The notes: generated from the sequence alone by a model not told the origin. Shown: positions 6,317 through 43,563, counted from the stretch's first letter. The stretch: 64,000 bases of DNA from a virus (IMGVR_UViG_3300021431_002946:289291-353290), one strand, 5' to 3'. Translations and numbers: made by a program.

Positions 6317-6388
6317 GCTATAAAGTAATCATGAATCTGGAGGGAAATTATTTTAATGCATTTTAATATTGTAGAAAGGAGAAACTTA

Positions 6389-7432
6389 ATGAGAACAAAA
6401 AAATTAGTTGCATCAGCCTTAGCGATGATCGTTGTTTTTGTACTAAGCAGCTCAGTATTTGCAGCTCCAGAAGAATTTGAATTAAAATTCAAACAAACTT
6501 ATTTAGTTACAAATAATATGAGCATTGCAACTATTCCAGAATTAGATCCTTTTACATATACGATTTCAAATGATGTAGATACAAGTTTTACTACACTAAA
6601 TGGAATAAATCAAATCTATAAAGGTGATTTAAGTAAAGTTACTTTAAAAACTACTGAAATTGATCTTACTCAAGAAATTGAAGCTAATACTACTGAAGAA
6701 GTTAGTTATGACATAGATCTTGAATTTAGTAATTTTGATAAAGTAGGTATTTATAGATATAGATTAGATCGAAATGATGGAGAATATGTTTACTTCGATA
6801 TTTATGTATTCAATGAAAATGGTACTCCAACTGTTGGTGGATGTAATTTCTATTCTAAAATATTTAGTAATTCTGAACAACATAAAGTATTAGATTTCTT
6901 AGATAGATATGAAGTAAATCAAGAAGAACAACTTTCACATACTCAAAATTCAATTATTCGATTTGTTGATCAAACTGGTAAAAAGATAAGAAATGATATT
7001 ATCTTAATCAGAAATTATAAAGATCCAATTAAAGCACAAAAGCCTATTAAACTTGAGTCAAGAAAGAAAATGGCAATAATTGATAATGAGATTGAAATGG
7101 TTGATGTTGCAACAAATGTTGACGCATGCATTGCAGAATATAAATCAAGCTTAAAATCTTATTTGAATAAAGCATATAAACTTATATCTGACCAAGTTGC
7201 AGATAATCTTGCTTTAGAAGCACCTGCATGGTTCAGTGAAGATGATCCAGATGAAGTTTTAGTTTTCGTAGTTAAAATGAAAGCACCTCCTTCAGGATTT
7301 ATTGGGCCTGGCACAGGTGATGCATTTAATCCTGTTTATTACACTACAATTGCACTTCTTAGTACCGGTGCAACTGCTTGTGCAATAATATATATTCGTA
7401 AGAAAATTAAAAAAATAGAAAAAACTAATTAA
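6389..7432 (+). CDS. secreted cell-wall-anchored pilin-like protein (signal peptide, C-terminal xPGTG + TM + KKIKK tail)
   Basis: RBS-supported ATG at 6389. N-terminal signal peptide AMIVVFVLSSSVFA. C-terminus GPGTGD..hydrophobic..RKKIKKIEK. Confidence 0.6.
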   Translation: MRTKKLVASALAMIVVFVLSSSVFAAPEEFELKFKQTYLVTNNMSIATIPELDPFTYTISNDVDTSFTTLNGINQIYKGDLSKVTLKTTEIDLTQEIEANTTEEVSYDIDLEFSNFDKVGIYRYRLDRNDGEYVYFDIYVFNENGTPTVGGCNFYSKIFSNSEQHKVLDFLDRYEVNQEEQLSHTQNSIIRFVDQTGKKIRNDIILIRNYKDPIKAQKPIKLESRKKMAIIDNEIEMVDVATNVDACIAEYKSSLKSYLNKAYKLISDQVADNLALEAPAWFSEDDPDEVLVFVVKMKAPPSGFIGPGTGDAFNPVYYTTIALLSTGATACAIIYIRKKIKKIEKTN

Positions 7433-7452: not shown

Positions 7453-8808
7453 ATGAAGAAAACACATCAAAGAATTACTAGAGGACTTGCGGCTGGTCTT
7501 TTAGTAGCAGCCTTAGCCGCAATGCCTGTTTCTGCTGCGCCTATTGGTAGTGATACTGGTATCGCTGAAGGTGGACCATCAGTAACAATTGATAAGGTTA
7601 TAGCTATTTATAATGATGGTTATAATAAGTCTTGGAATCCAGATGTAACTTATACATTTGAAGTTTCTGCAGCTACAGTTGATAACGTAACTGTTACAGA
7701 TAGTAATGGTACAGTTGTTACAGTTAAGCCTGGTGTAGCAGCAGCTATCGCAGGTCAGTCTGGTGGTAAAGCAACTGTAACTTGCGATTTTGCATCTGCA
7801 GAAGTTGTTGATACTACTTCTACTCTTGCAGAAGGTCTTAAGAGTACATTTGAGATTGGATTTGATGTAACAGCGTTTGCTACTACTGGTCCTGGTATTT
7901 ATCGTTTTAAGATTGACGATGTTACTCCTGCTGCAACTCTTTTAGCTGCTGGTATTGTAAGACCTGCAGGTTATGAAGCAACAAAGTATCTTGACGTTTA
8001 TGTTAAGACAGATACTGCAGATCCTACTCAGTTAGTAATTGATGGTTATGTATTAATTGATACTAATACATCTCTTGAACCTGATGATAGTCATAAGGAT
8101 CCTGGATTTAGACCTGTTGTTACAGAAACTCAGATTCCTGTACCTGGTACAACTATAGAACAACCTAGTGCTACTACATCTAGTTATGGTGTAACTGGTA
8201 TTAATGGTGATAATACATTTGACTATTATAAGACAGTTAACCTTACAGTAAGTAAAGATATTACTGGTAACATGGCAGATACATCTCATGCATTCCCATT
8301 TGTAATTGGTCTTACAAATCAGACTGGTGCAGCTGTTCCTGCTACTGTTTATGTAGGTAATGCTGCAAATGCATTAACTGGTAAAACTAATGCATCATTT
8401 AATGCTAACTTAGCAAAAGATGGAACTTATCTTGTATATGGTATCAATCCTCTTGCTACTGTTAATGTAAAAGAGACAAATGATACAAATGATACATATA
8501 GAGCCTCTATTAAAGTAAATGGTGCTGATGACGGTGCACAAACAGCTCTTGCACATGGAGATGAAAAAGCTATGACTGCTTTAGCAGTATCTGACTATGA
8601 TTCTTCTGCAGCTGCAGTTCCTGCAACTATTACAACAGCTAATGGTGCTAATGCTTCTGCTACTGCTGCATTTGAGAATAATCTTAATGCTGGTACACCT
8701 ACAGGTATCGCTCTTATGGTTGCTCCTTTTATTGCAATTGCTGCAGTAATTGCTACAATTTTTGGTATTAACAAAATTAAGACCAAGAAAGAGACTGACG
8801 CTGAGTAA
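7453..8808 (+). CDS. secreted pilin-like surface protein with sortase-type C-terminal sorting signal (TPTG)
   Basis: signal peptide LAAMPVSAAP; C-terminus GTPTG + hydrophobic stretch + NKIKTKKE tail; T/V/A-rich beta-rich body. Confidence 0.6.
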   Translation: MKKTHQRITRGLAAGLLVAALAAMPVSAAPIGSDTGIAEGGPSVTIDKVIAIYNDGYNKSWNPDVTYTFEVSAATVDNVTVTDSNGTVVTVKPGVAAAIAGQSGGKATVTCDFASAEVVDTTSTLAEGLKSTFEIGFDVTAFATTGPGIYRFKIDDVTPAATLLAAGIVRPAGYEATKYLDVYVKTDTADPTQLVIDGYVLIDTNTSLEPDDSHKDPGFRPVVTETQIPVPGTTIEQPSATTSSYGVTGINGDNTFDYYKTVNLTVSKDITGNMADTSHAFPFVIGLTNQTGAAVPATVYVGNAANALTGKTNASFNANLAKDGTYLVYGINPLATVNVKETNDTNDTYRASIKVNGADDGAQTALAHGDEKAMTALAVSDYDSSAAAVPATITTANGANASATAAFENNLNAGTPTGIALMVAPFIAIAAVIATIFGINKIKTKKETDAE

Positions 8809-8894
8809 GTTTTAATGTAAAGGACATTACTTGACATTATTTTAATAGTAATGTTGAGTAATGTCCTATTTTAAAAAAAAATAGGTACTAAAAT

Positions 8895-9401
8895 ATGAAA
8901 AAGTGTAAGGAATTTATAAAAAAGCATAATGAATTATTTCTAGCAATATTGAAATTAACAGTATTTGCATTGGCTTTATTTATATGTTTTGGAGTAATTT
9001 TAGGTATAAAGACAATGGATTCAGATTATATGCGTCCTGGATTAAAATATCGAGATAATGTAGTTTACTCTCGTTATGGAAATGATTATATTTTAAGGGA
9101 TATGATTATTTATGAATATGAAGGAAAATTATATTTTGGACGAATTGTTGGAATGCCTGGAGTAACGATTCGAACTGATGCTAACGGCAATATTTATCAG
9201 AATGATAATCTTGTATACGAAGAAAACATCAACTATACTTCTAAACGATCGATGGAAGTAGAGTTATCCTTAAAAGATGACGAGTATTTTGTTATATGCG
9301 ATAATCGTTCTCAAAATTTTGATAGTAGAAAGTTTGGACCTATTTCAAAAGATAAATTTAAAGGAAAAGTAATAATGGTGTTGAGGCGATTCGAAATATG
9401 A
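8895..9401 (+). CDS. signal peptidase I (S26) homolog, apparently non-catalytic (SipA/LepA-like pilus assembly factor)
   Basis: box D GRIVGMPGV and box E DNRSQNFDSR present. Box B Ser is Tyr (DYMRPGL) and box D Lys is Gly by hand alignment to SipS. Confidence 0.65.
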   Translation: MKKCKEFIKKHNELFLAILKLTVFALALFICFGVILGIKTMDSDYMRPGLKYRDNVVYSRYGNDYILRDMIIYEYEGKLYFGRIVGMPGVTIRTDANGNIYQNDNLVYEENINYTSKRSMEVELSLKDDEYFVICDNRSQNFDSRKFGPISKDKFKGKVIMVLRRFEI

Positions 9402-10114
9402 AATGGGAAAAAAGAGTACATAAAATCGTTTCTTTATTTATAGAAATATGTTGTGTTATTATTCTTTTACTCATGGGATATTTTATATATGACGTTATTA
9501 ATATACAAAGATCTGCTAATGTAGATAATTATATAAAAGAAATTAAACCAACCATAAATAAAGAAACAAAAGAAGTAGATTTATCAGCTTTACAAGCAAT
9601 AAATCCTGATGTTGTAGGTTGGTTAACTCTAGATGATACAAGAATTGATTATCCTGTTTTACAAGGTAATCCTGATTATACGTATTTAAATAGAGATATG
9701 TACGGTAATGTAAGTCTTACTGGTTCATTATTTATAAGTTATCAAGCAAATCGTTATTTTGAAGATGATTATACCATAATATATGGTCATCATATGGAAG
9801 CTGGCGGTATGTTTGGCGCAATAGATTATTATGAAGATGAAAACTATTTTAATGAACATTTAACAGGCACTCTAATTACTGAAAAGAAAATTTATGATTT
9901 AAAAGTACAAGCGTTAATATATTTAGACGCATATAGCGAAATATATTCTAAAAAAGATATAAAAACATTAAAAAAATTTATTAAAAACACAAAAAATTAC
10001 GAAGTCAAAATTGGTAACATAGAGATTACAGACAAGACTTTATTACTGTCTACCTGTGGTCCCAATGGAAACACAGATAGAATTATTTTAATATTAAGTA
10101 TGGAGGAAAGATAA
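9398..10114 (+). CDS. srtB: class B sortase
   Basis: N-terminal TM; DYPVLQG, IIYGHHM (His), LLLSTCGP (TLxTC Cys), downstream Arg. Confidence 0.85.
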   Translation: MKWEKRVHKIVSLFIEICCVIILLLMGYFIYDVINIQRSANVDNYIKEIKPTINKETKEVDLSALQAINPDVVGWLTLDDTRIDYPVLQGNPDYTYLNRDMYGNVSLTGSLFISYQANRYFEDDYTIIYGHHMEAGGMFGAIDYYEDENYFNEHLTGTLITEKKIYDLKVQALIYLDAYSEIYSKKDIKTLKKFIKNTKNYEVKIGNIEITDKTLLLSTCGPNGNTDRIILILSMEER

Positions 10115-13100
10115 TGCTAAAGACAAAAAGAAAACTTCTGGCAACACTTGTAGCATTCACATTAGTCATGACATCAATTATGCCTAATGTTGCTTTGGCG
10201 TTAGAGTCAGTAGAAGACACTCAGCCTACTACTAAGATTACAGAAACAGAGCCTGCTGCTTCTACAAAATCTACAAAAAAGCCAGAATCTTCAAAGCCTA
10301 AAGAAGCAAAAGAGGCAACTGAAGATACAACAAAAGCTACTTCTGAATCAACAAAGGCAACTTCAGAAACAACTAAAAAGCAAGTAGAAATAACTACTAA
10401 GGCTACTGAAGAAACTAAGGCTACTGAAGCTACTACTTCAGAGACCACTAAGACGTCAGAAGAGACTAAAGCTAGTGAATCTACTCCAAAGGAATCAACA
10501 GAAACTTCAGCTGAAACAGCAAGTACAACTGAAACTTCTGAGACTAAGGAGACTAAAGAAACTGCAGAAACAACTGTAGAAACTTCTGAATCTTCTAGTA
10601 ATACAGTACCTTTAGAGTCTACTACTGAGGAATCAAAGTCTTCTGAATCTACTACAGAAGAAACTATTCCTACTGAATCTGGAGAAGTTACTGAGTCTTC
10701 TGATCCTATTGAGAGCACAGAATCTACAGAGTCAACTGAGCCTACAGAGTCAACTGAAGAAACAGAACCTTCAGAGTCAAGTTCAGAAACTAGTGAACCT
10801 GAAGAAACAGAATTTAATCAGTCTATTACAGTAGATGGAATTAAGATTACTGTTACAGCTGATAAAGGTGTTTTCCCTAATGGAGCAGAATTAACTGCTA
10901 AAAAGGTTGAAAATAATAAAATTAATAAAGAAGATAACGTAGTTGCTTCTATGACTTTTGATATTGCTATTATGCTCAATGGAGAAGAAATTGAGCCTGA
11001 TACTACAAAGGGTCAAGTAAAAGTTACTTTCTTTGATGAAAGATTTGAAGATAAGAACTTAGACGCAGCTATTTACCATACTTCAGATGATAAAAAGACT
11101 GAGGAATTAAAGATTAAGAATGTTGAAGGTGGTGCTGAGGTTACTACTGATGGATTCTCTCTTTATACAGTCGAATTTACTTATGAAGATATGAAGTATA
11201 CTTTAACTGGATATGCTTCAGCTCCTCTTAAGACAATTCTTGAAAAAGTTGGTCTTACTGGTGAAGTTACAGACGTTAAAATAAGTAATGAAAAACTCGT
11301 TAGATATGAAAATGGTTATATCTTTGCAGTTAAAGCTTTCTCTACAAAAGAATGGATGAAAGTTACTATTAATGATATTACTTATATTATTACTCTTACA
11401 GATAGTCCTGACTCTCCTGAAGACGCTACTGCTGGAACTGATGCTTATGCAATTCTTTATGATTCTGGTAAATTAGTTTTCCAGAAAGGTCAAGATGTTA
11501 TTGGCGCTTATGGTACTAAGCAACAAGAATGGTTAGTTCCTACAGAATTTGTAGATAATTCTGATACTACAGATGTAGATGAATCTATTCCTGCTTGGTG
11601 TTCTTATGCAGAAAACATTAATAAAATCATATTTGTAGATAACATTAAGGGTATTACTTCTTTAAAGACATATTTTAAGGGTCTTAAAAATATTACTACA
11701 ATTTCTAATATTGATAGATTAGATGTTTCAACAGTTACTACTCTTAATGCTTTATTCATGGATTGTTCATCTATTACAATATTAGATTTATCATCTTGGA
11801 ATACTGCAAAAGTTACAGATATGTGCGCAATATTTAATGGATGTTCTTCATTAAAAACATTAAATTTATCTGGTTGGAATTTCAGAGGATTAAATTATGG
11901 TGGTGCATTTAGTGGTGCACTTAATGGATGTACATCATTAAAGACTTTAGATTTATCTAGTGTTAAAATGCCTGTAAAAACTTATGATGTAGGTTTATGC
12001 CTTGGTTGGCATGCTGCAGGTGGTGGAATAAATCTTGATAGTATTGATGTATCAAATATTGATTTAACACAGACTAAATCTTTGTATGGTTTCTTAACTA
12101 TTTCAGCAAAACAGATTATTGGTCTTACTACTTGGGATGTTTCTAGAGTAGAATGTATTAGTAGTTTGTTTAATGGAAATAATCTTGTTGAAAACATTGA
12201 TATTTCTGGTTGGGATTTAAGAAATATGACAAATACTAATGGTTCTGCAATATTTTCTGGTTGTGCTAATCTTAAGACATTAAATATGTCTAATGTAAAA
12301 ATGCCTGCTGATACTGGTGCATCTAATTTCCAATTAGGTTGGGGTAATATTGGTGGTACTTTAAATAGCATTAATGTTACTAACTTAGACTTATCAAATA
12401 CAACAAGTCTTTGTGGTTTCTTAACAGTTCCTGCTAAGAATATTATAGGTCTTGATACATGGGATACGTCTAATGTAACAAATTTCAATAGTTTATTTAA
12501 TGGTCAAAAATTTATTACTGAATTAGATTTATCTAATTTCACATTTAAATCAGGTGATACAGTTTATGCTATGTGTGCATCAATGCCTAAATTAACTAAG
12601 ATTATATTACCTGCATCATATAATAATTTAACCATTAATGAAGATAATAACATAAGTGTTTCTTATATTTGGACTAATGTAGAAACTGGAGAAAGTTTTA
12701 AAGCAGATCAAATTACTTCCGCTGGTACATATGAAAGAATTTTAGGTAATGATGCATATGTAAACACAAATGCTTATGCGATTCTTTATACAGATGGTAC
12801 ACTTATCTTCCAGAATAATGATGAAGTAGATTCTACACATGGTTCTGTAGTACAGACTTGGGAAGTTGATGAATCATCACATCCTTGGACTTCATCTGAA
12901 TATAAAGATCAAGTTACTAAAATTATTTTTGCAAATAAATTAATTGGTAGAACATCTGCGTACTATATGTTTAGTAATATGTCTAATTTAACTACAATTG
13001 AAAATTGTGGAAATTTAGATACTTCAAACATAACTACAATGAACTCAATGTTCTATAATGCTTGTAACTTAACATCTATTGATGTTTCAGATTGGGATAC

Positions 13101-16100
13101 GTCAAAAGTTACTAATTTTAGATGGATGTTTGGTTGTGATGATAATGCAGCTAATAATTCTAAATTAGTTTCTGTAATAGGAGCTAAGAATTTAATAAAG
13201 GTTGCTGCTACTGCTGCAAATGCAATGTTCAATAATAACTATTCTTTAAAGAATATTGATACATCTAATTGGAACATGTCAAATATAACAAATACTAGCT
13301 CAATGTTCGCACAGTGTGATGCATTAACAAGTCTTAATACTACAAATTGGAATATGTCAAACAATACAAATATGTATGCTATGTTCTATGATAGTAATTC
13401 ATTGAAGACAGTTGATATATCTAACTGGAATATTTCTAGTAATATGACTAATACAAGTTGGTCATTTACAAGAACAAAAGTTACATCACTTGATATGAGT
13501 AATTGGAATATGTCTAATGTAACTGATACATATTATATGTTCGGTGGATGTAATGATTTAACTAGTGTTAAATTGGGCGCTAATTGGAAATTTGCAACAA
13601 ATAATAGTAGTGGAACTTTTGGTTATAATCCTACATTTAAGAATTCATCTAATGAATATGTTCAAATGTCTGATATTTATTCTTGGGATTCTAGTAAAGC
13701 AGATACATATATTATATGCGCAACTGTTGGAGAAAATGCTTATGCTTTACTTTATGGAGATGGATATTTAGTATTCCAAAAAGGTCCTACGCCAGATCCT
13801 AATCATGGTGAATTAATTGCTTCTTGGGCAGTTAAGGACGCTAATTATGATTGGACAGGTTATTCATCAAACATTAAATATGTTGATTTTAAGGATGAAA
13901 TTTATGGTAGAACATCCACAGATCATATGTTTAATGAATGTGTATACTTAAACGAAGTATATAATGCACAAAAACTTGATATGTCTCAAGTTACTAACAT
14001 GTCATTTATGTTTGCATATGATAAACAGTTAACTAAAATTAATGGATTAGAACAATGGAAACCTTCTAATTGTACAGAATTCAATTATGCATTTGGTTCA
14101 TATAATGCAGAAGGTACTAAATTAACTGAAATTGATATGTCTAATTGGCAGATTAATGAAGTACATCAATTATTTAGAATGTTTGAGAATTGTTCTAATC
14201 TTAGAGTAATTGATTTATCTGGTTTTAACTGCGTAAGTGGTTATGCATGTGATAATATGGTAAATGGTTGTAAGAGTTTATCTAAGATTATTTTACCTGA
14301 AAGTATTGCTGTATATTCTGAAAATAATAGAACGAGAATTGGTTTAAATTCATCAAGTCAAACTTGGTTAAAAGATGGAACTACTGTAGTTGATTATCAA
14401 GAAGCTATTGTTGGTGGTACTTATGAGAAAATTCTTAATGTAGTTACATTTAAGAAAGACTCAGATGCTGCTAATGATGTAATTTTCTATATTACTGAAA
14501 CTAATACATCTTTTGAAATACCTGATGAATTAAAAACTTTACCTAACAATACTGAAGGTGAAGCATTTATTGGATGGTATGATGGTCAGGATAATAAATA
14601 TACAAATGAAAATATTACAAGAAATACTCCAAGTACATTATATGCAAAATTTGGTCATGCACCTCAAGATGCAATTTATGGAGATGACTTGTATAAATTA
14701 CTTTATATAGATGCAAATAATCAGTATGTAGTTGTATATCAAAAAGGAAATACTCCTACTTCTGGTTACGGTACATTTGTAAGTAGCACATTAGTTACAA
14801 CAAGTCAATCAAATGAATATGTAAATGGCGTTTATACTCCAGTTACAATATTAGATTTTGATTCTTATACAACAAATAATTATTCTAATATGCCTACAAA
14901 GGTAGTATTTAGAGATAGATTGATTAATTTACCTAAAGCTGATGTTAGATTTACATCAGAAAGAGTTAAAAAGTATGAAAACTTAGATTATATTGATATG
15001 TCTAATGCAACTGGTATTAGATTTTCTAATAAGTCTAATGTATATGGTTGTTCTGGAATGGCAACTTGGAATACCACTAATATTACTAATATGTATCAAT
15101 TATTCTATAATACAAAAGTTGCTACTACAGATATTCCTAATTTAAGTAATTGGAATACAAGTAATGTTACAAATTTAAGTTATGCATTCTATAGTACAAA
15201 TGGTGAAGTTAAAGGTCTTGAATCTTGGAATACTTCTAATGTAACAGATATGTCTTACATATTCTATAGTGCTAATATGCTTAATACAGATTCAATTAAA
15301 GATTGGAATGTATCTAAAGTTAAAAAATTTAAGTCTGCATTTTCATCAAATACAGCATTACTTGAAGCAGAATTAAATTGGGATATGAGATCTGCTGAAG
15401 ATATGTCTTATATGTTTGATAGTTGTTATAAATTATCTAAAATTAAAACTAATAAGACATTTATTGCAACAGCTAATACTAATAATATAAATCATATTTT
15501 CTATTGCTGCGATAAATTAACAGATATTACAGATTTAGCAAAATGGGATGTTTCTAATGTAACAGATATGTCTTATGCATTTGCAAATTGTAATAAATTA
15601 GCTATTATAAATGCATTAAGTGGATGGGATGTTTCTAATGTTACTACAATGAAACACATGTTTAGTGCATTTGCTAATGCTAGTTATGATACTTGGTCAG
15701 GCTATGATGCTGAACGTGGTCCTGGAAATTTAGTTGATTTATCTGCATTAAGTAATTGGCAAACTAGTAGTCTTACAGATATTAGTTTCATGTTCTATTG
15801 CCAAGCTTATTTAAATAATATTAATGGAATATCTGGTTGGGATGTATCTCATGTTACAGATATGACAGCTACATTCTGTGGATTAAGCAGACTTACTTCT
15901 TTAGAAGCACTTTCTAGTTGGACAACTAGTTCATTAACTAAATTATGTTCTACATTTAAAGGAATGTATGCATTAAAATCTGTTGATGGATTAGAGAATT
16001 GGGATGTAACTAATGTTACTGATATGTCATTTATGTTAGATCTGCGTTATTATGCAAACTCATTAAGAGATGTATCTGCACTTTCTAATTGGCATGCTAA

Positions 16101-19100
16101 TTCTTTAAATGATTATAGATATATGCTCTATAACTGTAATTTAATTCCTGAAGTAGATTTTAGTAATTGGGATTTATCTAGAACTGGTACAAATTCTAGA
16201 AGTGATTATGTATTTAATGGATGTGATAAACTCATAAAAATTACTTTACCTGCAAATTTTGTAGTTTATAGTTCTTCTTCATATGGTACTCCATTTAATT
16301 CAGATTGGATTTATACAAAAGATAATTCTGTTGTAAACTTACAAACTGAATTCTCTAATTGGACTGTTGATAAAGCTGGTACATATATAAAGAATTATTA
16401 TGTATCATTATATCCTATGGGTGGTACAGTTGATCCTACTAAGATTGAAACTAATTTGAATCAGTCTATAGACGAACTTCCTACACCTGTAAGAGATGGA
16501 TATAATTTCTTAGGTTGGTTTGATTCTGAAGGAACTCTTAGAACTTCAATTCCAGCTGGAGAGTATATAACTAGCTTATTTGCTCAATGGGAGTCAAAAG
16601 GAACTTATACATTAGTATTAGATCCTAATATTAATGGTTATGAACCTTATGTTGTAGAATTAAAACTTGATGAAAAGTTTAGACTTGATTATACTCTTTT
16701 AAATATTCCTGATTCATTTGAATTTAGTCAGTGGACAGAAAGAAAGAGTGGAGATGGTGAAGTTTATACTCAAAATCAAATCGTAGTTGGATTAGCTGAA
16801 CTTGGTGAAACAGTTACAATTTATGCACAGTGGATAACACATAGTTCATTCCCTGTAAAGATGCATGCAGTTAATATTTTAACTGGTGAAAGAACATCTC
16901 TTGGAAATGTAGATGTACGTACTAATGAATATTTTGATATTTCTGCTATAAAAAATATAGTTAAAAATAAAGTTGGTAATACATATATTTATTATGCATC
17001 TTATAGAAATGATTTAGATTGTGTACATTTTGAATATAATGAAGAAGATGTAATTCATTATGAGAATCAAGGTTATAATTCTGCGTATACAAATGCAGGA
17101 AAATCTACTGGTGAAGATTTCTATTATACATATGATAGAATAAAAGATGATAGAGGTCAATTTGTTAATTCTTCACATATGTGGACTTTAGATGATTTTA
17201 ATAATGATATATATGTTTATTATATACCTGCATTAAAAGCAAGAGTCTGGTTTAACAAAGAATCTGTATCTAAATTACCAGTAGATGAGCTTATTATGAC
17301 TGTCGATGGTAAACAATATAAATCTGGTGAATATGTATTTGATTTAGATAATTCTAGATTTTCACCTAGTGCAAGAGTAAGTATTGGTGAAGGATATGTT
17401 CCTTCTGCTTATGCTAATGCTCGTTGGGAATATTATACAGATTCACTTCTTAGAAATTTTGCATATATGATGGCAGAAGAAAAGAATTATTCATTTAATT
17501 ATCCTGTTTCATTAAATAATGCAAGAGAAGGTAAGGGTTGTCATAAGAGTGAAGAAGCTACAGGAATGAAGTATAGTTATTTGTGGTGGAATTCTCCTAA
17601 TGATATAATGGATATTAGTATTACATTTGATTTAAATGTAGTATATGATTTTAATAATTCTGGACAATATGCTGGTCCATCTGGTTTACAAGCAAGAAAT
17701 CTTTATACATATTATTCACAATATCCATATAGTATAGATAATATTACTCAGGTATATGGTATAACAGCAGAATCTAATGATGGTTATATTATTGAAGGTT
17801 GGTATACTGCGCCTGAAGGTGGTACTAAAGTATATGATCCTAATGCAGAATCATATAGAAATCCTATGACACCTCCTATAGACTTTTCTAATTGTCCAGT
17901 TGTAGATTATTCAGATAAATTAGACCAAATTAATAATGATATTTATGTATTTGGTGAACCTAGAATGACGCAAAATAAGTATGTTACTTTATATGCGCAT
18001 TGGGTTCCTAAGTCTGAATATAATGCAAGCTCATCACAATCTACATTTACAGTAATTCATATTAATGATTCACATAATCCAACTGTAACAGAATATGGAT
18101 ATTCACAAAAATTTGTAGCTCCAAATAAGCTTACAGATGTACGTTGGAATAGCTATATGGATGATAGTTGGTCTTATGTAGATAATCCAGATGAATCATA
18201 TTATTATGATGGTTATTGGACAATGGAGAAAGACTATGCTTGGGAGAAAGATCCAATAGAATTTGAAGATCATATCTTTGGTGGATGGTACACAGAACCT
18301 AATGGTCAAGGCACAAAAATTACAAAAGATATGATAATAACTGAAACTGGCGATATTACATTCTATGCATATTGGAAGAAACCTACTGAAAAGATTAATT
18401 TTAGTCTTGAAACAAATGGAGATCATCCAACTAGTGCTGAAATTAAGTTTAGTAATACAGCATATTCAAATTATTATTATATTACACCTACTACTGCATA
18501 TATTTATGGTGCAGACACAGTAGCTGGTTATATGATTCCTTATGCTATGACTGATGAAGAGTATGATTTTATTGGTTGGTATGATTCAAATAATCATAAA
18601 CTTGAAGTTGGTGATACATTTGTAGATGGTGCAACTTATTATGCTAAATGGGAAAAGAATATTGTTTCAGTTGAAGGTATAGATTATGATTTTAATTTTA
18701 CTTTCAAAAATAGCAAAAATAAGATGAAATTAAGTAATCCTTATATTTCAAATGCATCTATAGATATATTATTTAAAATTAGTCATACAGAAAATATTTT
18801 ACCTGAAAAAGCTATTAAAATCTATATACCTACTACAAATATTTTAAATACATCTGTTATTAGTTATAATGGTGATTTAGAAAATGGTAAATACTATAGG
18901 TATGATAATCCATCTTATGATGAGACTACTTATAATAATTATAATTGTATGATTTGTAATGCATATGATATTACAGGTAGTGCTGGTTTTACTAATGAAA
19001 AATCTAATGTTTCAATTGAAGAAGATGGCTCTGGTATACAATTCTATGATGCAGATGGTAATATATATAAACCTGGAAAAGATTATTATTCTAAAGTATA

Positions 19101-22100
19101 TAAATCAGATCCTATTATATTAACTATTGATACAAATGGAGATGGTACTCCTGATATAGTTAAGTATAAATATTTATATATTGAAAGTGATCCTATTACA
19201 GGTGCTGGCGTATCTAATTTTGATAATATTAATATTAATGGTTATATAACTAAAACTTGGAATTCTGAGTGGGGTGAAGAACCTGCAGACGCTAGCGATT
19301 ATCTATTTGTAACATGGCAAATTAGTAATACATATCTTGATATGTATGATCGTACACAGTATTATAATAACCAAGACATGTATTTCTTTGCAAATACTAA
19401 GTTACCTATAACCAGTGCTGGTCAAAAAGTATATAATAAGCAAGTTGAACATAATGGAGAAAATTATGAATTTGCATTTTCTGTACTTGCAAAACCAGGT
19501 AATTATAGTACTCAAGAAACACATTCTGAGAATAATACTATTGTTATGAAATATCCTAAGTCTCAGTTTAGTTATGATGCGCAATTAGGTGAAATTTCTC
19601 AGCAATTTGAGATTTTAGTATCACCAAGAAATCCTTATATTAATGGTCAATGGTATGAAGATACTGTTATTAAGACTGGTAAGGTTACTTGGAGTTGGGC
19701 TGAAGGTTCATCTGAAACCAATGGTCGTGATATGTGGGCTAATATGGGACGTTTCAGCGGTGGTTATGTAAGTTCTGTAAATAGTAGAAATACTATTCAG
19801 AAACAAAGACAATATGCTGTTTTAAATAACACTCTTGAAATGGAATGGTATAGCTTATATGCCCAGAGAATTATTAATGGTAATGATGAATTTAGTGTTT
19901 CAGTAAAACCTGGAGATTTCTCTTATGCTTCAGGTGCTTCAGAAAATTGTTATATGTGGCAACCTGCAACTGGAAGAACAGATTTAAGTACATATGATTA
20001 TTGTATTACTGGAATTCAATACGCTGTATTTAATGGTTATTCTGAAAAGTTAAATGATGGTTATGATCCTAATGTACCTATATATGTTGGAGATATTCAA
20101 GAAGTTAACAGAAATAAATATGTTGAAATCTATGTAATGTATAGAGGTTCTAATACTTGGACTTTACTTGATAAAAATGGTTCTGTTTGGAGTGCGCCTT
20201 CTAACTTAAGGTCTTATAATGATGGACATGTTAATGTTCAATTTAATCGTGGTTATTCTCGTAATTTCGATTCTGATGAATGGGAATACGGTGAACCTTA
20301 TAGTTATATTTATGATACTAGAGTTGTTGGTGTTAAAGTTAAAGCTAAGTTTGAAACTGGATCTAATTATCAAGCTGTAGTTGTTGTTCCTAAGATTAAA
20401 ATTTTCCCTAGCTTTACAACACAAGACAAAGTTAAAATGGACTTTGATCAAGAAGTAAAATCTGCTATTACTATGACTGACTTTACAATTGATGGTTATA
20501 AGTCTAATGCATCTTATAGAAAAGGACAATGGTCTGATGTTACTGGTGCAATTACTGATTTAGGTCTTACTACTTGGTATCTTACTTCAGATGTTACTGA
20601 TCTTGATTTAAGAAATAATATTAAAACATTAAATCTTAATACAGGCAATGTAAGTGGTCTTGAAGAAGGAGATGCACAGGTTGTTTGTGAAGTTATAAAT
20701 CAGGCGCAAAATAGTACATATTACAAAGCAATTACTTCTGGTGATTATTATGTATTATTACCTGAAAATACTTCACTTAAGTTAGCTGAAACATACTTTG
20801 CTGGTACTAGTTATGCAAATTCAAGCTATTTTACAAATACAGATATAAATAGCTGGAATTATGGTGGATTAAGTTATGACAGTATGGGCGGATTAACTCC
20901 AGAAGAATGTAGTGTTGAAACTATTGAAAACTGGGAAAATAGTGGTAGAACAATGGTTATTTATCATCTTAAAGATTTAACTAAGAAATATACTGAAATA
21001 GATTTATCTCATTATAATAGTTTAATCTTTAAATTAACACTTCATAGAGAGAATGAAGATATTTATGGTATTAATGGTGATGTTGCAACTCTCTTTGTAG
21101 ATAAGTCTGGTACTTTCTACATAAATAGAAGAGAAAAGTATGAAAATGCTGGTGCAACTGTACATGAATACTTTAGTAACTTAAATTCTCAAAATGCAGC
21201 TAAAGAAAGATCTATGGCTTATGCTTATGCTGACTTTACTTTCTATACTGAAATCTATAATACTGGTTCCGGTAATGAAAATATGGCGCATCAAGATGGA
21301 TTTAATGATTATGTTGCAAATAGTTCAAATCAATATACTAATAATGTAAATGTTTTCCCTGGTGAAAACTATACATATAAAGTTCTTTGGTCACAAAGCG
21401 GTAAGAAGATTATCGATTATGGAGATCATACAGATGAAATTGATAATGAAACTAATAATGCAATAATTTATACAAGACTTGATGGTGTTGGTGTATTTAA
21501 AGGCGTTTATGCACCTGCTATAACAGGTAAAGTTTATTTAGATGATGAACATTTAACATCAGAAAATGTAACTGTTACACCTACTATCTGGTACTGTAAA
21601 GATCCTAATTTTGCAAGTATAAATAATTTTGCTGATTATGATTTAAGCACAATTATTTTAGATGCAGATCACGGTTGGTATACTTCTGCAAATCTTGATA
21701 GTGATGCTAAGGTATATGGAATGGCATTTGATTATTCTAAAGATAGTCAAGGCAGAGATGTATATCTTGCAGGTGATAAATTTATTGGTATTACTATTTA
21801 TCAACAGAATTTAGAGTTAGCAAATCAAACATTTAATAGTGAGAGTAGAATTTCTATTACAAACTTTAATAGTGCTGATTATGGTGGATTAGTAACAGTT
21901 AATGTAGCTATTCCTGACCTTAAGATTGATGTAGTTTCAAATCCTGCGTCTGGTACAGCAACTAATCCTACTGCAGTTCGTTATGAACAAGACTTAGTTT
22001 ATACTTGGACAGTTCATAATAGAGAAGATAGAGCTATTAATGATGTTATAGTTTCATTTAAGGTTCCTGATGCAACTACTTGTACATTAGATAAAATTAA

Positions 22101-22476
22101 AGTTGGTAATATCTCTATAACAGATTCTATTGCTATTAAAAATGCTACACTTGAAAATGGTATAGTTACACTTACTATTAAGACATTAAGTGCAAATGAA
22201 GATTTTGTAATAACTGAAAATACTTATGTATCTACAGGTGAAAATGGAATTATGATTACAAATCAAGGTTTCATTAATGGATATAATGGAATAATTCCTA
22301 CTGATACTCAAATAGATGCAATGAAATCAGATATTACATATCATATTACATTAACAATGCCTGAACCTACAGGTATAGTATTAAACGTAATGCCTTATGC
22401 TTTAATCTTTGGTGCAATCTGCGTAACATTCTTTGTTTCAAAGAAAACATTAAAGAAAAAAGAAGAAGAGGAATAA
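10114..22476 (+). CDS. giant (4120 aa) sortase-anchored adhesin: S/T/E-rich stalk, 4 BspA/DUF285-type LRR modules, Listeria-Bacteroides repeats, DUF11-like domain, C-terminal PEPTG sorting signal
   Basis: Uninterrupted 12.4-kb ORF. Signal peptide; WDxSNVTxMxxMF repeats; FxGWYTxxxGxxxxxYAKW repeats x5 or more; C-terminus PEPTG + TM + KKTLKKKEEEE. Confidence 0.85.
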   Translation: MLKTKRKLLATLVAFTLVMTSIMPNVALALESVEDTQPTTKITETEPAASTKSTKKPESSKPKEAKEATEDTTKATSESTKATSETTKKQVEITTKATEETKATEATTSETTKTSEETKASESTPKESTETSAETASTTETSETKETKETAETTVETSESSSNTVPLESTTEESKSSESTTEETIPTESGEVTESSDPIESTESTESTEPTESTEETEPSESSSETSEPEETEFNQSITVDGIKITVTADKGVFPNGAELTAKKVENNKINKEDNVVASMTFDIAIMLNGEEIEPDTTKGQVKVTFFDERFEDKNLDAAIYHTSDDKKTEELKIKNVEGGAEVTTDGFSLYTVEFTYEDMKYTLTGYASAPLKTILEKVGLTGEVTDVKISNEKLVRYENGYIFAVKAFSTKEWMKVTINDITYIITLTDSPDSPEDATAGTDAYAILYDSGKLVFQKGQDVIGAYGTKQQEWLVPTEFVDNSDTTDVDESIPAWCSYAENINKIIFVDNIKGITSLKTYFKGLKNITTISNIDRLDVSTVTTLNALFMDCSSITILDLSSWNTAKVTDMCAIFNGCSSLKTLNLSGWNFRGLNYGGAFSGALNGCTSLKTLDLSSVKMPVKTYDVGLCLGWHAAGGGINLDSIDVSNIDLTQTKSLYGFLTISAKQIIGLTTWDVSRVECISSLFNGNNLVENIDISGWDLRNMTNTNGSAIFSGCANLKTLNMSNVKMPADTGASNFQLGWGNIGGTLNSINVTNLDLSNTTSLCGFLTVPAKNIIGLDTWDTSNVTNFNSLFNGQKFITELDLSNFTFKSGDTVYAMCASMPKLTKIILPASYNNLTINEDNNISVSYIWTNVETGESFKADQITSAGTYERILGNDAYVNTNAYAILYTDGTLIFQNNDEVDSTHGSVVQTWEVDESSHPWTSSEYKDQVTKIIFANKLIGRTSAYYMFSNMSNLTTIENCGNLDTSNITTMNSMFYNACNLTSIDVSDWDTSKVTNFRWMFGCDDNAANNSKLVSVIGAKNLIKVAATAANAMFNNNYSLKNIDTSNWNMSNITNTSSMFAQCDALTSLNTTNWNMSNNTNMYAMFYDSNSLKTVDISNWNISSNMTNTSWSFTRTKVTSLDMSNWNMSNVTDTYYMFGGCNDLTSVKLGANWKFATNNSSGTFGYNPTFKNSSNEYVQMSDIYSWDSSKADTYIICATVGENAYALLYGDGYLVFQKGPTPDPNHGELIASWAVKDANYDWTGYSSNIKYVDFKDEIYGRTSTDHMFNECVYLNEVYNAQKLDMSQVTNMSFMFAYDKQLTKINGLEQWKPSNCTEFNYAFGSYNAEGTKLTEIDMSNWQINEVHQLFRMFENCSNLRVIDLSGFNCVSGYACDNMVNGCKSLSKIILPESIAVYSENNRTRIGLNSSSQTWLKDGTTVVDYQEAIVGGTYEKILNVVTFKKDSDAANDVIFYITETNTSFEIPDELKTLPNNTEGEAFIGWYDGQDNKYTNENITRNTPSTLYAKFGHAPQDAIYGDDLYKLLYIDANNQYVVVYQKGNTPTSGYGTFVSSTLVTTSQSNEYVNGVYTPVTILDFDSYTTNNYSNMPTKVVFRDRLINLPKADVRFTSERVKKYENLDYIDMSNATGIRFSNKSNVYGCSGMATWNTTNITNMYQLFYNTKVATTDIPNLSNWNTSNVTNLSYAFYSTNGEVKGLESWNTSNVTDMSYIFYSANMLNTDSIKDWNVSKVKKFKSAFSSNTALLEAELNWDMRSAEDMSYMFDSCYKLSKIKTNKTFIATANTNNINHIFYCCDKLTDITDLAKWDVSNVTDMSYAFANCNKLAIINALSGWDVSNVTTMKHMFSAFANASYDTWSGYDAERGPGNLVDLSALSNWQTSSLTDISFMFYCQAYLNNINGISGWDVSHVTDMTATFCGLSRLTSLEALSSWTTSSLTKLCSTFKGMYALKSVDGLENWDVTNVTDMSFMLDLRYYANSLRDVSALSNWHANSLNDYRYMLYNCNLIPEVDFSNWDLSRTGTNSRSDYVFNGCDKLIKITLPANFVVYSSSSYGTPFNSDWIYTKDNSVVNLQTEFSNWTVDKAGTYIKNYYVSLYPMGGTVDPTKIETNLNQSIDELPTPVRDGYNFLGWFDSEGTLRTSIPAGEYITSLFAQWESKGTYTLVLDPNINGYEPYVVELKLDEKFRLDYTLLNIPDSFEFSQWTERKSGDGEVYTQNQIVVGLAELGETVTIYAQWITHSSFPVKMHAVNILTGERTSLGNVDVRTNEYFDISAIKNIVKNKVGNTYIYYASYRNDLDCVHFEYNEEDVIHYENQGYNSAYTNAGKSTGEDFYYTYDRIKDDRGQFVNSSHMWTLDDFNNDIYVYYIPALKARVWFNKESVSKLPVDELIMTVDGKQYKSGEYVFDLDNSRFSPSARVSIGEGYVPSAYANARWEYYTDSLLRNFAYMMAEEKNYSFNYPVSLNNAREGKGCHKSEEATGMKYSYLWWNSPNDIMDISITFDLNVVYDFNNSGQYAGPSGLQARNLYTYYSQYPYSIDNITQVYGITAESNDGYIIEGWYTAPEGGTKVYDPNAESYRNPMTPPIDFSNCPVVDYSDKLDQINNDIYVFGEPRMTQNKYVTLYAHWVPKSEYNASSSQSTFTVIHINDSHNPTVTEYGYSQKFVAPNKLTDVRWNSYMDDSWSYVDNPDESYYYDGYWTMEKDYAWEKDPIEFEDHIFGGWYTEPNGQGTKITKDMIITETGDITFYAYWKKPTEKINFSLETNGDHPTSAEIKFSNTAYSNYYYITPTTAYIYGADTVAGYMIPYAMTDEEYDFIGWYDSNNHKLEVGDTFVDGATYYAKWEKNIVSVEGIDYDFNFTFKNSKNKMKLSNPYISNASIDILFKISHTENILPEKAIKIYIPTTNILNTSVISYNGDLENGKYYRYDNPSYDETTYNNYNCMICNAYDITGSAGFTNEKSNVSIEEDGSGIQFYDADGNIYKPGKDYYSKVYKSDPIILTIDTNGDGTPDIVKYKYLYIESDPITGAGVSNFDNININGYITKTWNSEWGEEPADASDYLFVTWQISNTYLDMYDRTQYYNNQDMYFFANTKLPITSAGQKVYNKQVEHNGENYEFAFSVLAKPGNYSTQETHSENNTIVMKYPKSQFSYDAQLGEISQQFEILVSPRNPYINGQWYEDTVIKTGKVTWSWAEGSSETNGRDMWANMGRFSGGYVSSVNSRNTIQKQRQYAVLNNTLEMEWYSLYAQRIINGNDEFSVSVKPGDFSYASGASENCYMWQPATGRTDLSTYDYCITGIQYAVFNGYSEKLNDGYDPNVPIYVGDIQEVNRNKYVEIYVMYRGSNTWTLLDKNGSVWSAPSNLRSYNDGHVNVQFNRGYSRNFDSDEWEYGEPYSYIYDTRVVGVKVKAKFETGSNYQAVVVVPKIKIFPSFTTQDKVKMDFDQEVKSAITMTDFTIDGYKSNASYRKGQWSDVTGAITDLGLTTWYLTSDVTDLDLRNNIKTLNLNTGNVSGLEEGDAQVVCEVINQAQNSTYYKAITSGDYYVLLPENTSLKLAETYFAGTSYANSSYFTNTDINSWNYGGLSYDSMGGLTPEECSVETIENWENSGRTMVIYHLKDLTKKYTEIDLSHYNSLIFKLTLHRENEDIYGINGDVATLFVDKSGTFYINRREKYENAGATVHEYFSNLNSQNAAKERSMAYAYADFTFYTEIYNTGSGNENMAHQDGFNDYVANSSNQYTNNVNVFPGENYTYKVLWSQSGKKIIDYGDHTDEIDNETNNAIIYTRLDGVGVFKGVYAPAITGKVYLDDEHLTSENVTVTPTIWYCKDPNFASINNFADYDLSTIILDADHGWYTSANLDSDAKVYGMAFDYSKDSQGRDVYLAGDKFIGITIYQQNLELANQTFNSESRISITNFNSADYGGLVTVNVAIPDLKIDVVSNPASGTATNPTAVRYEQDLVYTWTVHNREDRAINDVIVSFKVPDATTCTLDKIKVGNISITDSIAIKNATLENGIVTLTIKTLSANEDFVITENTYVSTGENGIMITNQGFINGYNGIIPTDTQIDAMKSDITYHITLTMPEPTGIVLNVMPYALIFGAICVTFFVSKKTLKKKEEEE

Positions 22477-22705: not shown

Positions 22706-23731
22706 ATGAAGAAGATTATTCAGAATTCAAAGAGAGGTTTTACCCTTGTAGAGATGCTTCTTGTAATTGCAGTTATTGTAATTCTGTCTGGCGTAACTAT
22801 CGTTGGTATTAGAGCAATGATTGATAATGCAAACAAGAATGCTGCAGCAGTTGAACTCCATGCAGGTTGTTGGTATGTAGAAGATCCGAATGGTTCTACA
22901 ATATTGCCTGGTACAACTACAAAAATTCGAGTTGTAGATAGAAATACGCCTGGCGCTCAGTATTATAGCGATATGGACGCTATGTACGCACAGGTAAAAA
23001 GTATTCAGGGAACAGTACCTAACATAGAGCCTGAGCATGCACATGTAAATACTGGTGATGATGGATTCGACGATGAATGGTGGGCAAAGAATGATGCGGA
23101 TTGGCAGAAGCAGATTGATGATTTGATTAAGGCTGGATGCCCTCAGGATCAGATTAAGGTTGTTAGAAATACGGAAGGTCATATCGTTGGTGTAAGTACA
23201 GATTGGAAGCCTGATTCTAATTCTGGAAATTCTGGTAACAATGATGCTAATACAGGATCAAATGGTTCTGGTAATTCTGATTCAAATACTGGAAACAATA
23301 CTGGTTCAAATACAGGTTCTAATACTGGAAACGGTGATGCAAACACAGGTTCAAATGGTTCTGGTAATACTGGTAATACTGGTAATACCGGTAATACCGG
23401 TAATACAGGCAATACTGGAACACAGTCTTCTGGAGCAATTACAGTTCCTAATACTGTAACATCTGGTACAGGTGTTAAGAATTTTACAAATAATAATGAT
23501 GGAACAACTACTGCAACATTAATTCTTAATACTTATAATACTGGTGAAGTTAAGTTTAGAACAAATCCTGATGGTACTCACTCAATTTATTGTGTAGGCA
23601 AGGATGGTCATACTGTTGTAGGTAATGTAATTGGTTATACACAGGATAATCAGTGGTGTAATGAAAATACTTGGATTAAGTTAACACCTGCAGATTGGGC
23701 TAAGCTTTCATCAAGTTACGGATTTAATTAA
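22706..23731 (+). CDS. type IV pilin/pseudopilin-like protein (prepilin N-terminal methylation motif) with G/N/S/T-rich repeats
   Basis: KRGFTLVEMLLVIAVIVILSG class III signal; (GNT)n low-complexity segment. Confidence 0.7.
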   Translation: MKKIIQNSKRGFTLVEMLLVIAVIVILSGVTIVGIRAMIDNANKNAAAVELHAGCWYVEDPNGSTILPGTTTKIRVVDRNTPGAQYYSDMDAMYAQVKSIQGTVPNIEPEHAHVNTGDDGFDDEWWAKNDADWQKQIDDLIKAGCPQDQIKVVRNTEGHIVGVSTDWKPDSNSGNSGNNDANTGSNGSGNSDSNTGNNTGSNTGSNTGNGDANTGSNGSGNTGNTGNTGNTGNTGNTGTQSSGAITVPNTVTSGTGVKNFTNNNDGTTTATLILNTYNTGEVKFRTNPDGTHSIYCVGKDGHTVVGNVIGYTQDNQWCNENTWIKLTPADWAKLSSSYGFN

Positions 23732-25232: not shown

Positions 25233-25306
25233 TGAGGTGTGGTGTAGCGGCAGCACACGGGTCTTTGACACCCTTGGTGTAGGTTCAACCCCTACCACCT
25301 CAGCCA
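25233..25306 (+). tRNA. tRNA-Gln (anticodon UUG)
   Basis: Hand-folded cloverleaf. Acceptor TGAGGTG/CACCTCA, D-stem GTGT/GCAC (one GU), anticodon loop CTTTGAC, T-arm GTAGG-TTCAACC-CCTAC, discriminator G, encoded CCA. Confidence 0.8.
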
Positions 25307-25310
25307 AAAT

Positions 25311-25386
25311 GCTCCAGTAGCTCAGTTGGTAGAGCAATAGACTTTTAATCTATGGGCCGTGCGTTCGAACCGCATCTGGGGCACCA
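25311..25386 (+). tRNA. tRNA-Lys (anticodon UUU)
   Basis: Acceptor GCTCCAG/CTGGGGC, D-arm GCTC-AGTTGGTA-GAGC, anticodon arm ATAGA-CTTTTAA-TCTAT, T-arm GTGCG-TTCGAAC-CGCAT, discriminator A, encoded CCA. Confidence 0.85.
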
Positions 25387-28257: not shown

Positions 28258-28764
28258 ATGTATATACCTGCAAATGAAGAAGAAAGAAAATATCTTGAAA
28301 AATATGATCCTAATAAGTATGCAAAGCCTTGTGTAACTGTTGATCTTATTGTTTATATTAAGGGTTTAGGTTTACTTCAGGTAAAGAGAGGCAATTATCC
28401 TTATAAGGATTATTGGGCATTGCCTGGAGGTTTTCTTGATGTTGGTAAAGAAAATACAGAAGAAGCTGCAATAAGAGAACTTAAAGAAGAAACTAATCTT
28501 GACGTAAATGTTGATCAGCTTACACTTGTTGGAGTATATAGTAATCCTGAAAGAGACCCTAGAGATCATGTAGTAGATATAGTATACACAATTGAGCTTG
28601 ATAGTTCTTATATAGATAAAGTAAAAGCTGGAGATGATGCTAAAGAAACAAGATTTGTTCAGTTAAATAGAGGTCCTGTTACTGATGATCCTACATATAG
28701 TAAAGAACTGCCTATGGCATTTGATCATAATAAGATTATTAAAGATTGGATGAATAAAAGATGA
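28258..28764 (+). CDS. NUDIX hydrolase (ADP-ribose/NAD pyrophosphatase-like)
   Basis: Nudix box GGFLDVGKENTEEAAIRELKEETNL. Confidence 0.85.
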   Translation: MYIPANEEERKYLEKYDPNKYAKPCVTVDLIVYIKGLGLLQVKRGNYPYKDYWALPGGFLDVGKENTEEAAIRELKEETNLDVNVDQLTLVGVYSNPERDPRDHVVDIVYTIELDSSYIDKVKAGDDAKETRFVQLNRGPVTDDPTYSKELPMAFDHNKIIKDWMNKR

Positions 28765-31656: not shown

Positions 31657-31657
31657 T

Positions 31658-35629: not shown

Positions 35630-35633
35630 AATA

Positions 35634-36856: not shown

Positions 36857-36890
36857 TTAGACTAAAATTACAATTTATTTACAAAAAATA

Positions 36891-36919
36891 TTTACGCATT
36901 TAAAAAAGTATATTATAAT
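36891..36919 (+). promoter_or_regulatory. TTTACG-N17-TATAAT promoter (a second TTTACA -35 lies 13 nt upstream); the -10 ends 11 nt before the ATG, so the mRNA is probably leaderless
   Basis: motif read directly. Confidence 0.55.
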
Positions 36920-36929
36920 AATATAATAT

Positions 36930-42063: not shown

Positions 42064-42071
42064 GTGATAAT

Positions 42072-43029: not shown

Positions 43030-43041
43030 GGAGGTATAAAT

Positions 43042-43551: not shown

Positions 43552-43563
43552 TAGAGGACTAAT

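Follow-up and report, generated by a model that had tools for sequence, protein, structure and literature searches.

What does a signal peptidase homologue do when it is encoded between pilin-like genes and a sortase gene and appears to lack the residues with which signal peptidases cleave? This question is raised by an open reading frame (ORF) in a 64,000-nucleotide stretch of viral DNA (IMGVR_UViG_3300021431_002946:289291-353290; hereafter the window, meaning this whole stretch), where five co-directional, tightly packed genes encode two pilin-like proteins (p1 and p2), an S26 family protein that we call SipA-like, a sortase and a giant surface protein. We consider it probable that the SipA-like protein is a membrane-anchored S26 pseudo-enzyme, the functional counterpart of SipA/LepA of Streptococcus pyogenes (GAS, from group A Streptococcus), and that it serves as an accessory factor to the co-translated, Spy0129-like sortase. 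The gene is the following.

8895..9401, + strand: SipA-like S26 homologue without the Ser-Lys dyad; ATG start, 168 amino acids; third of the five cassette genes.

Judged from its sequence, the homology of this ORF to the S26 (type I) signal peptidases is far above chance. It matches PF10502 (Peptidase_S26) with E = 3.5e-16 (60 bits, cutoff 22.9), residues 20-162 aligning with positions 6-166 of the 168-position profile, and it matches the NCBIfam equivalog TIGR02227, 'signal peptidase I', with E = 8.3e-23 (81 bits, cutoff 47). Membership of the S26 fold is indicated by the whole catalytic domain being covered by the profile, by the presence of boxes B-E, and by Foldseek matches to SipA, SpsB and LepB. 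The original prediction, made by a model from the sequence alone, had described a signal peptidase I homolog with recognisable boxes D and E, and this is borne out by the two profile matches and by the strings DYMRPGL (residues 44-50), GRIVGMPGV (82-90) and DNRSQNFDSRKFGP (136-149), all of which were located in the 168-amino-acid protein. The AlphaFold2 (AF2) model (predicted local distance difference test, pLDDT, 78.7; predicted template modelling score, pTM, 0.70) consists of an N-terminal helix at residues 12-35 and an all-beta domain; a transmembrane helix was assigned to approximately the same residues (8928-8999), and the modelled helix is consistent with a membrane anchor. No second S26 or sortase paralogue was found within the window: when SpsB, SipS and the proteins of the window were used as tblastn queries, only the genes themselves were returned. 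Other ORFs of 168 amino acids (27658, 28258 and 56481) and another of 238 (60962) were considered as paralogues and proved unrelated.

The catalytic positions were assigned primarily with a profile made from the SipA-like protein and 17 database homologues (alignment A1), which was aligned by HMMER to solved PDB chains. In this alignment, the profile column that represents Tyr45 (codon TAT, 9027-9029) is matched to the nucleophilic Ser in the SpsB chain of Staphylococcus aureus (GESMDPTLK), to that in 4nv4 (GKSMMPTLQ) and to Asp48 of SipA (NTNDMSPAL), and the column that represents Gly82 (codon GGA, 9138-9140) is matched to the general-base Lys (YVKRVIGVPGD / YVKRIIGLPGD) and to Gly85 of SipA (KVGRIAAQAGD). 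The SipA residues were numbered by counting from Tyr37, Phe39, Val41 and Ile43 (PMC4049620), which gives Asp48 and Gly85, the residues that occupy the positions of Escherichia coli Ser90 and Lys145 (PMC4049620). The same dyad columns were obtained with the window protein itself by single-sequence phmmer, MAFFT and hmmalign; full SpsB and SipS sequences were included with MAFFT and hmmalign, and the box B and box D motifs of SpsB agree with the PDB chains. A third residue, Asn141 (9315-9317), lies in the column of E. coli Ser278, the Ser that positions the Lys, where SpsB and SipS have Ser and SipA has Arg. All three residues expected of an active signal peptidase (SPase), namely the box B Ser (E. 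coli Ser90), the box D Lys (Lys145) and the box E Ser (Ser278), are absent, and there is no substitute Lys in box D, where the counterpart of SipA Lys83 is Tyr80. The Tyr/Gly pair is kept, with the strings 'DYMxPG' and 'GR(I/V)VGMPG', in those close homologues whose sequence extends over both sites, and reads Asp/Ser in the more distant P0017. Residues that may belong to a peptide-binding cleft, namely the box B Met and Pro, the box D Arg and the box E DSR, are conserved as well; the model is of low confidence at residues 113-119 and 139-143. With Tyr45, Gly82 and Asn141 at the catalytic positions, the protein would not cleave signal peptides by the Ser-Lys mechanism, and the alignments show it to be a member of the S26 family from which the Ser-Lys dyad is missing. 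The earlier hand alignment, in which Ser had been read as replaced by Tyr in DYMRPGL and Lys by Gly in GRIVGMPGV, was right, since the profile alignments to SpsB and 4nv4 agree with it and restore no Ser and Lys at the dyad positions. Its statement that S. pyogenes SipA has the same property holds for the loss of the dyad and does not hold for the substitution, which is Tyr/Gly here and Asp/Gly in GAS SipA.

Among solved chains, those closest to the SipA-like protein by sequence are SipA/LepA 4n31 (1.6e-26, 96 bits) and 4k8w (2.7e-24), with the best active SPase at 46 bits. When the model was compared by Foldseek, chains A and B of 4n31 took ranks 1 and 2 (E = 3.7e-7, template modelling (TM) score 0.73 on target), followed by SpsB, the Enterococcus faecalis SPase and E. 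coli LepB. SipA had been introduced in the prediction as needed for pilus polymerisation and not for cleavage, which accords with the literature, where SipA is genetically essential for polymerisation and without peptidase activity (PMC4049620; PMC7900414). The term 'pilus chaperone' is sound as to this requirement and goes beyond it as to function, the chaperone role of SipA being itself a proposal and no binding partner having been demonstrated (PMC4049620; PMC7900414).

The identity of the neighbouring genes bears on whether the locus makes a fibre.

6356..7432, + strand: p1, a pilin-like protein of 358 amino acids, secreted and a candidate for a basal or ancillary pilin; signal peptide, sorting signal, transmembrane segment and basic tail.
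7453..8808, + strand: p2, a 451-amino-acid candidate shaft (major) pilin; DUF7601 (PF24547, E = 2.2e-12), signal peptide, AGTPTG, transmembrane segment and basic tail.
8822..8866, + strand: terminator- or attenuator-like hairpin (about 20 bp, then a U-tract) from a terminator scan; lies after the stop codon of p2 and before the start of the SipA-like gene.
9398..10114, + strand: class B sortase, 238 amino acids; TIGR03064 at 156.5 bits (cutoff 153.75); 4-bp overlap (ATGA) with the SipA-like gene.
10114..22476, + strand: giant, a 4120-amino-acid secreted surface protein, candidate tip or sortase-anchored adhesin; DUF285 (BspA-like), MPEPTG.

It is conceivable, though unlikely, that this locus serves anchoring only, with the class B sortase fixing monomers to the wall, the S26 pseudo-enzyme aiding secretion or anchoring of the 4120-amino-acid adhesin, and no fibre being formed. 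Most class B sortases are anchoring enzymes, for instance for IsdC, and the sortase of this locus falls within TIGR03064; in addition, the giant is translationally coupled to the sortase, its start overlapping the sortase stop (TAATG), and the pilin-motif lysines discussed below are candidates only. However, the best PDB match of the sortase is 3psq, Spy0129 (1.3e-29, 107 bits), compared with 72-78 bits for the SrtB chains of S. aureus, Bacillus anthracis and Listeria. The second-best match is 4y4q, deposited as 'Sortase, SrtB family', which we take to be SrtG1 of pilus islet 2 (PI-2), and the catalytic motifs of the sortase, GHHM for His, LSTC for Cys and DRII for Arg, align. In GAS, pili are polymerised by Spy0129, a sortase of class B (PMC3019223).

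The fold predicted for p2 points in the same direction. Its AF2 model (pLDDT 73.8) best matches the GAS T-antigens 6n0a, 3b2m (Spy0128), 6bbw and 6bbt, and PitB (4s3l and 7f7y), with E values of 1e-14 to 1e-11 and TM scores of about 0.55-0.6 on target. Since the T-antigens and PitB are shaft pilins of SipA-dependent pili, the predicted p2 fold fits such a pilus and speaks against anchoring alone. Across 25 homologues of p2, Lys48, Lys268, Glu341, Asn343, Asn409, Thr417 and Gly418 are invariant, and Lys215, in the linker motif 'KDPGF', is nearly so; the invariant Lys, Glu and Asn residues in both domains are, as far as sequence can indicate, compatible with intramolecular Lys-Asn/Asp isopeptide triads. 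By hhalign, the N-domains of p1 and p2 are homologous (96.9%, E = 2e-10), with the invariant Lys177 of p1 paired with Lys215 of p2; such conserved lysines at aligned positions speak against anchoring alone. A comparable N-domain homology exists between FctB and Spy0128. Searches of the PDB with the p1 and p2 sequences gave nothing meaningful, so that the informative comparisons are those of the predicted p2 fold and of the p1 and p2 profiles. A SpaA domain was found in the p1 orthologue of one of four related metagenomic contigs with which the window was compared (L001-L004), namely L001, and a Pro-rich tail precedes the p1 sorting motif in the orthologues of L002-L004.

The giant contains nine DUF285 stretches (5e-109) and Flg_new / Listeria-Bacteroides repeats (Pfam), as expected of an adhesin. 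Its sorting signal is MPEPTG (MPDPTG in relatives), followed by the transmembrane segment and a basic tail, and that of p2 is AGTPTG (AGPPTG and NVPPTG in relatives). The signal of p1 reads IGPGTGD in the window and PPKTGD or TPKTGD in relatives. In GAS, the SrtC substrates Cpa and FctA carry VPPTG, QVPTG, EVPTG or VVPTG, and the Pro-tailed basal pilin FctB, which is anchored by SrtA, carries LPSTG or LPLAG (PMC7900414). This parallel suggests, by analogy, that the giant is the tip, p2 the shaft and p1 the base.

The hairpin downstream of p2 (folding energy -30 kcal/mol, z = -6.3) has a counterpart of other sequence at the equivalent site of L001 (z = -5.2) and is not clearly present in L002 and L003. 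It may be an attenuator that sets the ratio of pilin to machinery, and its position after p2 would fit a shaft subunit made in excess of the machinery, a further point against anchoring alone. Taken with Spy0129 as the best sortase match and the T-antigen/PitB fold of p2, the xPTG-type signals support the suggestion of the prediction that the sortase and pilins form a polymerising pilus system rather than one for simple anchoring.

It is still less probable that the SipA-like protein is an active, dedicated pilin signal peptidase with unorthodox residues, in which Tyr45 is the nucleophile or an acid/base pair is supplied by the substrate. Such an enzyme would have substrates at hand, as p1, p2 and the giant bear classical signal peptides with AxA-type sites; Tyr45 is strictly conserved in the close family; and some pilus-linked SipA homologues, those of Streptococcus suis and Streptococcus agalactiae, have an intact dyad (PMC4049620). 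However, Lys is missing both from the place of the general base and from its vicinity (Gly82 and Tyr80), the Ser278 equivalent is Asn, and the Ser position is highly variable in the wider family, unlike a catalytic residue. When 1.84 billion cluster representatives were searched exhaustively with HMMER, 89 proteins reached E <= 1e-30 and 6086 proteins reached E <= 1e-10, and the dyad was counted in the 153 nearest 50%-cluster representatives. Ser and Lys are both kept in only 9/153, all ranked near the bottom of the list, and the dyad is absent in 144/153. The Lys position is Gly in 90 of the 153, and the Ser position is Asp in 69, Ser in 32, Asn in 10, Ala in 9, Tyr in 8 and Glu in 7, whereas Met46 and Arg83 are kept in 145/153. 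By alignment, therefore, the SipA-like protein belongs to a large clade without the dyad. Free variation at the nucleophile position argues against alternative catalysis and fits the finding that Asp-to-Ala and Asp-to-Ser mutants of GAS SipA, itself devoid of peptidase activity, are unaffected in polymerisation (PMC4049620).

Relatives were also sought in other collections. In a scan of GTDB, the pattern of which required Gly at the Lys position and thus biased the sample, the nearest relatives (<=32% identity), themselves without the dyad, came from rumen and gut metagenome-assembled genomes (MAGs) of Actinomyces, Ruminococcaceae and Clostridiaceae, and a class B-like sortase is located 1.5-3 kb downstream at five of these loci. 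No close relatives were found among phages by megablast of 24 kb, no relative was found in the IMG/VR scan, tblastn against phages and plasmids gave only ordinary lepB-like matches of 24-34% identity, and the viral structure library held no close SipA-like fold (best E = 0.011).

A functionless, decaying remnant of a signal peptidase is a very improbable explanation. It would account for the loss of the catalytic residues; however, boxes B, D and E are retained except for those residues. In a collection of 5.8 billion proteins, the SipA-like protein has 17 homologues, all metagenomic, with 60-98% identity across many independent contigs. The order p1-p2-S26-SrtB-giant is syntenic in L001-L004, the S26 ORF is intact in all relatives, and the 4-bp overlap of the S26 and sortase genes is kept in L001 and L002. 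The genes of the cassette compare with those of the window as listed below, where the ratio of nonsynonymous to synonymous substitution rates (dN/dS) is a rough ranking only, dS being saturated (0.7-2.3).

S26 gene: identity to window 60-73%, dN/dS ~0.12-0.15.
Sortase: identity to window 57-67%, dN/dS 0.22-0.34.
p2: identity to window 37-42%, dN/dS 0.37-0.64.
p1: identity to window 30-34%, dN/dS 0.56-0.76.
Giant: identity to window 24-36%.

The SipA-like gene is the most constrained of the cassette and is under purifying selection, and its dN/dS (~0.13), the lowest of the cassette, argues against a decaying relic. A separate observation concerns the p2 orthologue of L002 (8722-9864), which ends early, at 381 amino acids, and has no sorting signal (compare 8501-9781 in L003/L004). 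Its missing C-terminal part is apparently located downstream in another frame, as in a frameshift variant or an assembly error.

From the loss of catalytic residues, the homologies to SipA, Spy0129 and the T-antigens, the synteny and the purifying selection, all of them demonstrated by computation, we infer a binding or presenting role for the SipA-like protein, an order of the subunits and the lysines that would be used. In this scheme, the SipA-like protein, made stoichiometrically with the sortase, would sit at the outer face of the membrane, where it would bind secreted pilin precursors or present them to the sortase without catalysing a reaction itself. The sortase would join Thr417 of one p2 to a lysine of the next, for which Lys215 is the candidate, and so build the shaft; the 4120-amino-acid DUF285 protein, with its MPEPTG signal, would be joined as the tip; and p1, with its PxTGD signal and Lys177, would end and anchor the fibre.

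Several points weigh against this scheme and against the accessory role that it gives to the SipA-like protein. Tyr45, being conserved in the close family, could have a role of its own. The confidence of the AF2 model is no more than moderate, and residues 113-119 and part of box E (139-143) are poorly predicted, so that an intact binding cleft is putative. The sortase exceeds the class B equivalog cutoff narrowly, the p1 signal of the window (GPGTG) departs from the PKTG of its relatives, and the polymerisation of p2 and the giant, as opposed to their plain anchoring, is deduced from homology only. For SipA itself, pull-downs detected neither a SipA-pilin nor a SipA-sortase interaction (PMC7900414).

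The element that carries the cassette was read over about 84 kb (the window together with contigs L031 and L032) of a total of 466 kb. An identical SipA-like protein is encoded at ~297.6 kb of ena:ERZ12302815 NODE_7 (466,645 bp), in which the window corresponds to ~288.7-352.7 kb. The window has a G+C content (GC) of ~29%, and all listed ORFs with a family match or a plausible product are on the + strand. L032, which lies just downstream of the window, contains a primase, an IS605 TnpB and two ORFs with matches both to the beta and beta-prime domains of RNA polymerase (RNAP) and to PHROGs of phage RNAPs. When the beta-like ORF was compared with phages and plasmids, only weak partial matches were obtained (Salmonella phage Arash; ~100-kb Clostridioides difficile plasmid records), which are not decisive between phage and plasmid, and no capsid, portal or terminase genes were seen within the ~84 kb read. 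Going by its genes, the carrier looks like a huge phage with jumbo-phage-like split RNAP genes, and a megaplasmid is the other candidate. That the cassette is a complete, selectively maintained sortase-pilus island with which a huge phage (~466 kb) of a low-GC Firmicute dresses its host cell in adhesive pili is a tentative proposal, about which we are somewhat more doubtful than confident. Such phage-encoded pili would use the Sec, sortase and cell-wall machinery of the host during infection or carriage. No paper linking sortases with huge or jumbo phages was found in the literature searched.

A phage origin also invites the idea that the protein is a decoy, unrelated to the pilus genes, which would perturb host secretion by binding the SPase or the signal peptides of the host. 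This is hardly credible: the gene does belong to a phage-like element of 466 kb with many genes of host-takeover type and does keep the substrate-binding boxes without catalysis, but it shows tight, conserved linkage and translational coupling to the sortase and the pilins, and the pairing of a dyad-less S26 protein with a class B sortase is also found in MAG contigs, which may or may not be chromosomal, and in streptococci. The accessory role beside the sortase is the one that we retain for the SipA-like protein.

Other features of the window are as follows.

480-2057: PcfJ.
25233-25386: tRNA-Gln(TTG) and tRNA-Lys(TTT) in tandem.
28258-28764: Nudix gene.
30093-30512 and 32755-33216: two YbiA/NADAR-like ORFs.
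39372-39926: Tpt1/KptA-like gene.
40846-42063: nicotinate/nicotinamide phosphoribosyltransferase-like gene.
43042-43551: isochorismatase/nicotinamidase-like gene.
46521-47762: fused NMN adenylyltransferase and NAD synthetase.
57382-58623: UvsX-like recombinase.
62343-63629: DnaB-like helicase.

The NAD+ salvage or repair-type genes (40846-47762 and nearby) may counter an NAD-depleting host defence. A NinI-like phosphatase is also encoded in the window. Immediately after the giant, an ORF of 341 amino acids (22706-23731) begins with a type IV pilin- or pseudopilin-like N-terminus (KRGFTLVEMLLVIAV) and has a long low-complexity middle rich in Gly, Asn, Thr and Ser; with it the element would encode pilin-like proteins of two unrelated kinds. 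Two prohibitin/HflK-HflC-like membrane proteins are encoded at 30637-32533, where the listed ORF 31490-32533 overlaps the preceding prohibitin-like ORF by ~170 nucleotides and probably starts at an internal ATG near 'MKKYIIGILAV'. Five consecutive paralogous ORFs of ~180-210 amino acids (34453-37472; 21-24% GC), without a family assignment, share 'IIDDY..L..KV' N-termini and 'W(L)xYSxEQL' motifs, and a multi-pass family-2 glycosyltransferase of 615 amino acids (37491-39338; PgaC / GtrB-like PHROG matches) is a candidate modifier of the host surface. The IS605 element differs between assemblies of the same region, with TnpA (Y1) and TnpB in L033 (7924-9464) and TnpB only in L032 (14680-15810).

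The results have a practical side, because the SipA-like gene passes the 'signal peptidase I' equivalog cutoff and automatic annotation will mislabel it as an active enzyme, as is probably the case for much of the dyad-less clade. The SipA class gains a divergent, non-streptococcal representative with Tyr/Gly at the dyad positions, in a class that is large. The conservation of Met46, Pro48, Arg83 and Asp143-Ser144-Arg145, set against the freely varying 'catalytic' positions, gives a hint as to which sites are relevant to function, and the diversity of the clade should be useful for the question of how SipA promotes pilus polymerisation. Should the carrier be confirmed as a huge phage, a pilus island borne by a virus would represent a novel type of auxiliary function in phages.

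The locus can finally be compared with systems that are already known. Like SipA/LepA of S. pyogenes (FCT-2/3/4; 4n31 and 4k8w), the SipA-like protein is a single-pass membrane S26 homologue of ~170 amino acids with boxes B-E, in which Gly stands at the Lys position and the nucleophilic Ser and the Ser278 equivalent are both replaced, and its gene likewise shares an operon with those of a class B pilus sortase and of pilins of the T-antigen type bearing xPTG signals. It differs in having only ~26% identity, Tyr instead of Asp at the Ser position, Asn instead of Arg at Ser278 and no equivalent of Lys83. The gene order is also different, p1-p2-sipA-srtB-giant here and presumably cpa-sipA-fctA-srtC-fctB in S. 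pyogenes, and the carrier, unusually, is a 466-kb phage-like element of a ~29% GC organism, not a streptococcal chromosome. The active SPases LepB, SpsB and SipS share with the SipA-like protein the fold, the N-terminal anchor and boxes B-E, including Met46, Pro48, Arg83 and Asp143-Ser144-Arg145; in contrast to them, it is without the Ser-Lys dyad and the Ser278 equivalent.

In PI-2 of Streptococcus pneumoniae and Streptococcus oralis (pitA-sipA-pitB-srtG1-srtG2) and in PI-2b of group B Streptococcus (GBS), an S26 homologue also accompanies a class B sortase pilus, and there it is required for assembly. Of the folds that p2 matches best, PitB is one, and 4y4q is the second-best match of the sortase; however, the sequences are distant, and PI-2 has one shaft pilin and PitA, whereas a 4120-amino-acid DUF285 protein takes the adhesin position here. 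The Clostridium perfringens VR-10B necrotic enteritis (NE) pilus locus (cnaA-fimA-fimB-signal peptidase-class B sortase), which forms one transcript (PMC8088525), is similar by description, being a Clostridia-class system in which a signal peptidase homologue is encoded along with three pilins and a class B sortase, and differs in being chromosomal and in having a collagen-binding tip. The combination of pilins, an S26 homologue and a class B sortase is already established for GAS FCT-2/3/4, PI-2 and GBS PI-2b (PMC4049620; PMC7900414) and for the NE pilus of C. perfringens VR-10B (PMC8088525). By its homologies, therefore, the locus described here is a new, divergent representative of a known pilus architecture and not a new kind.

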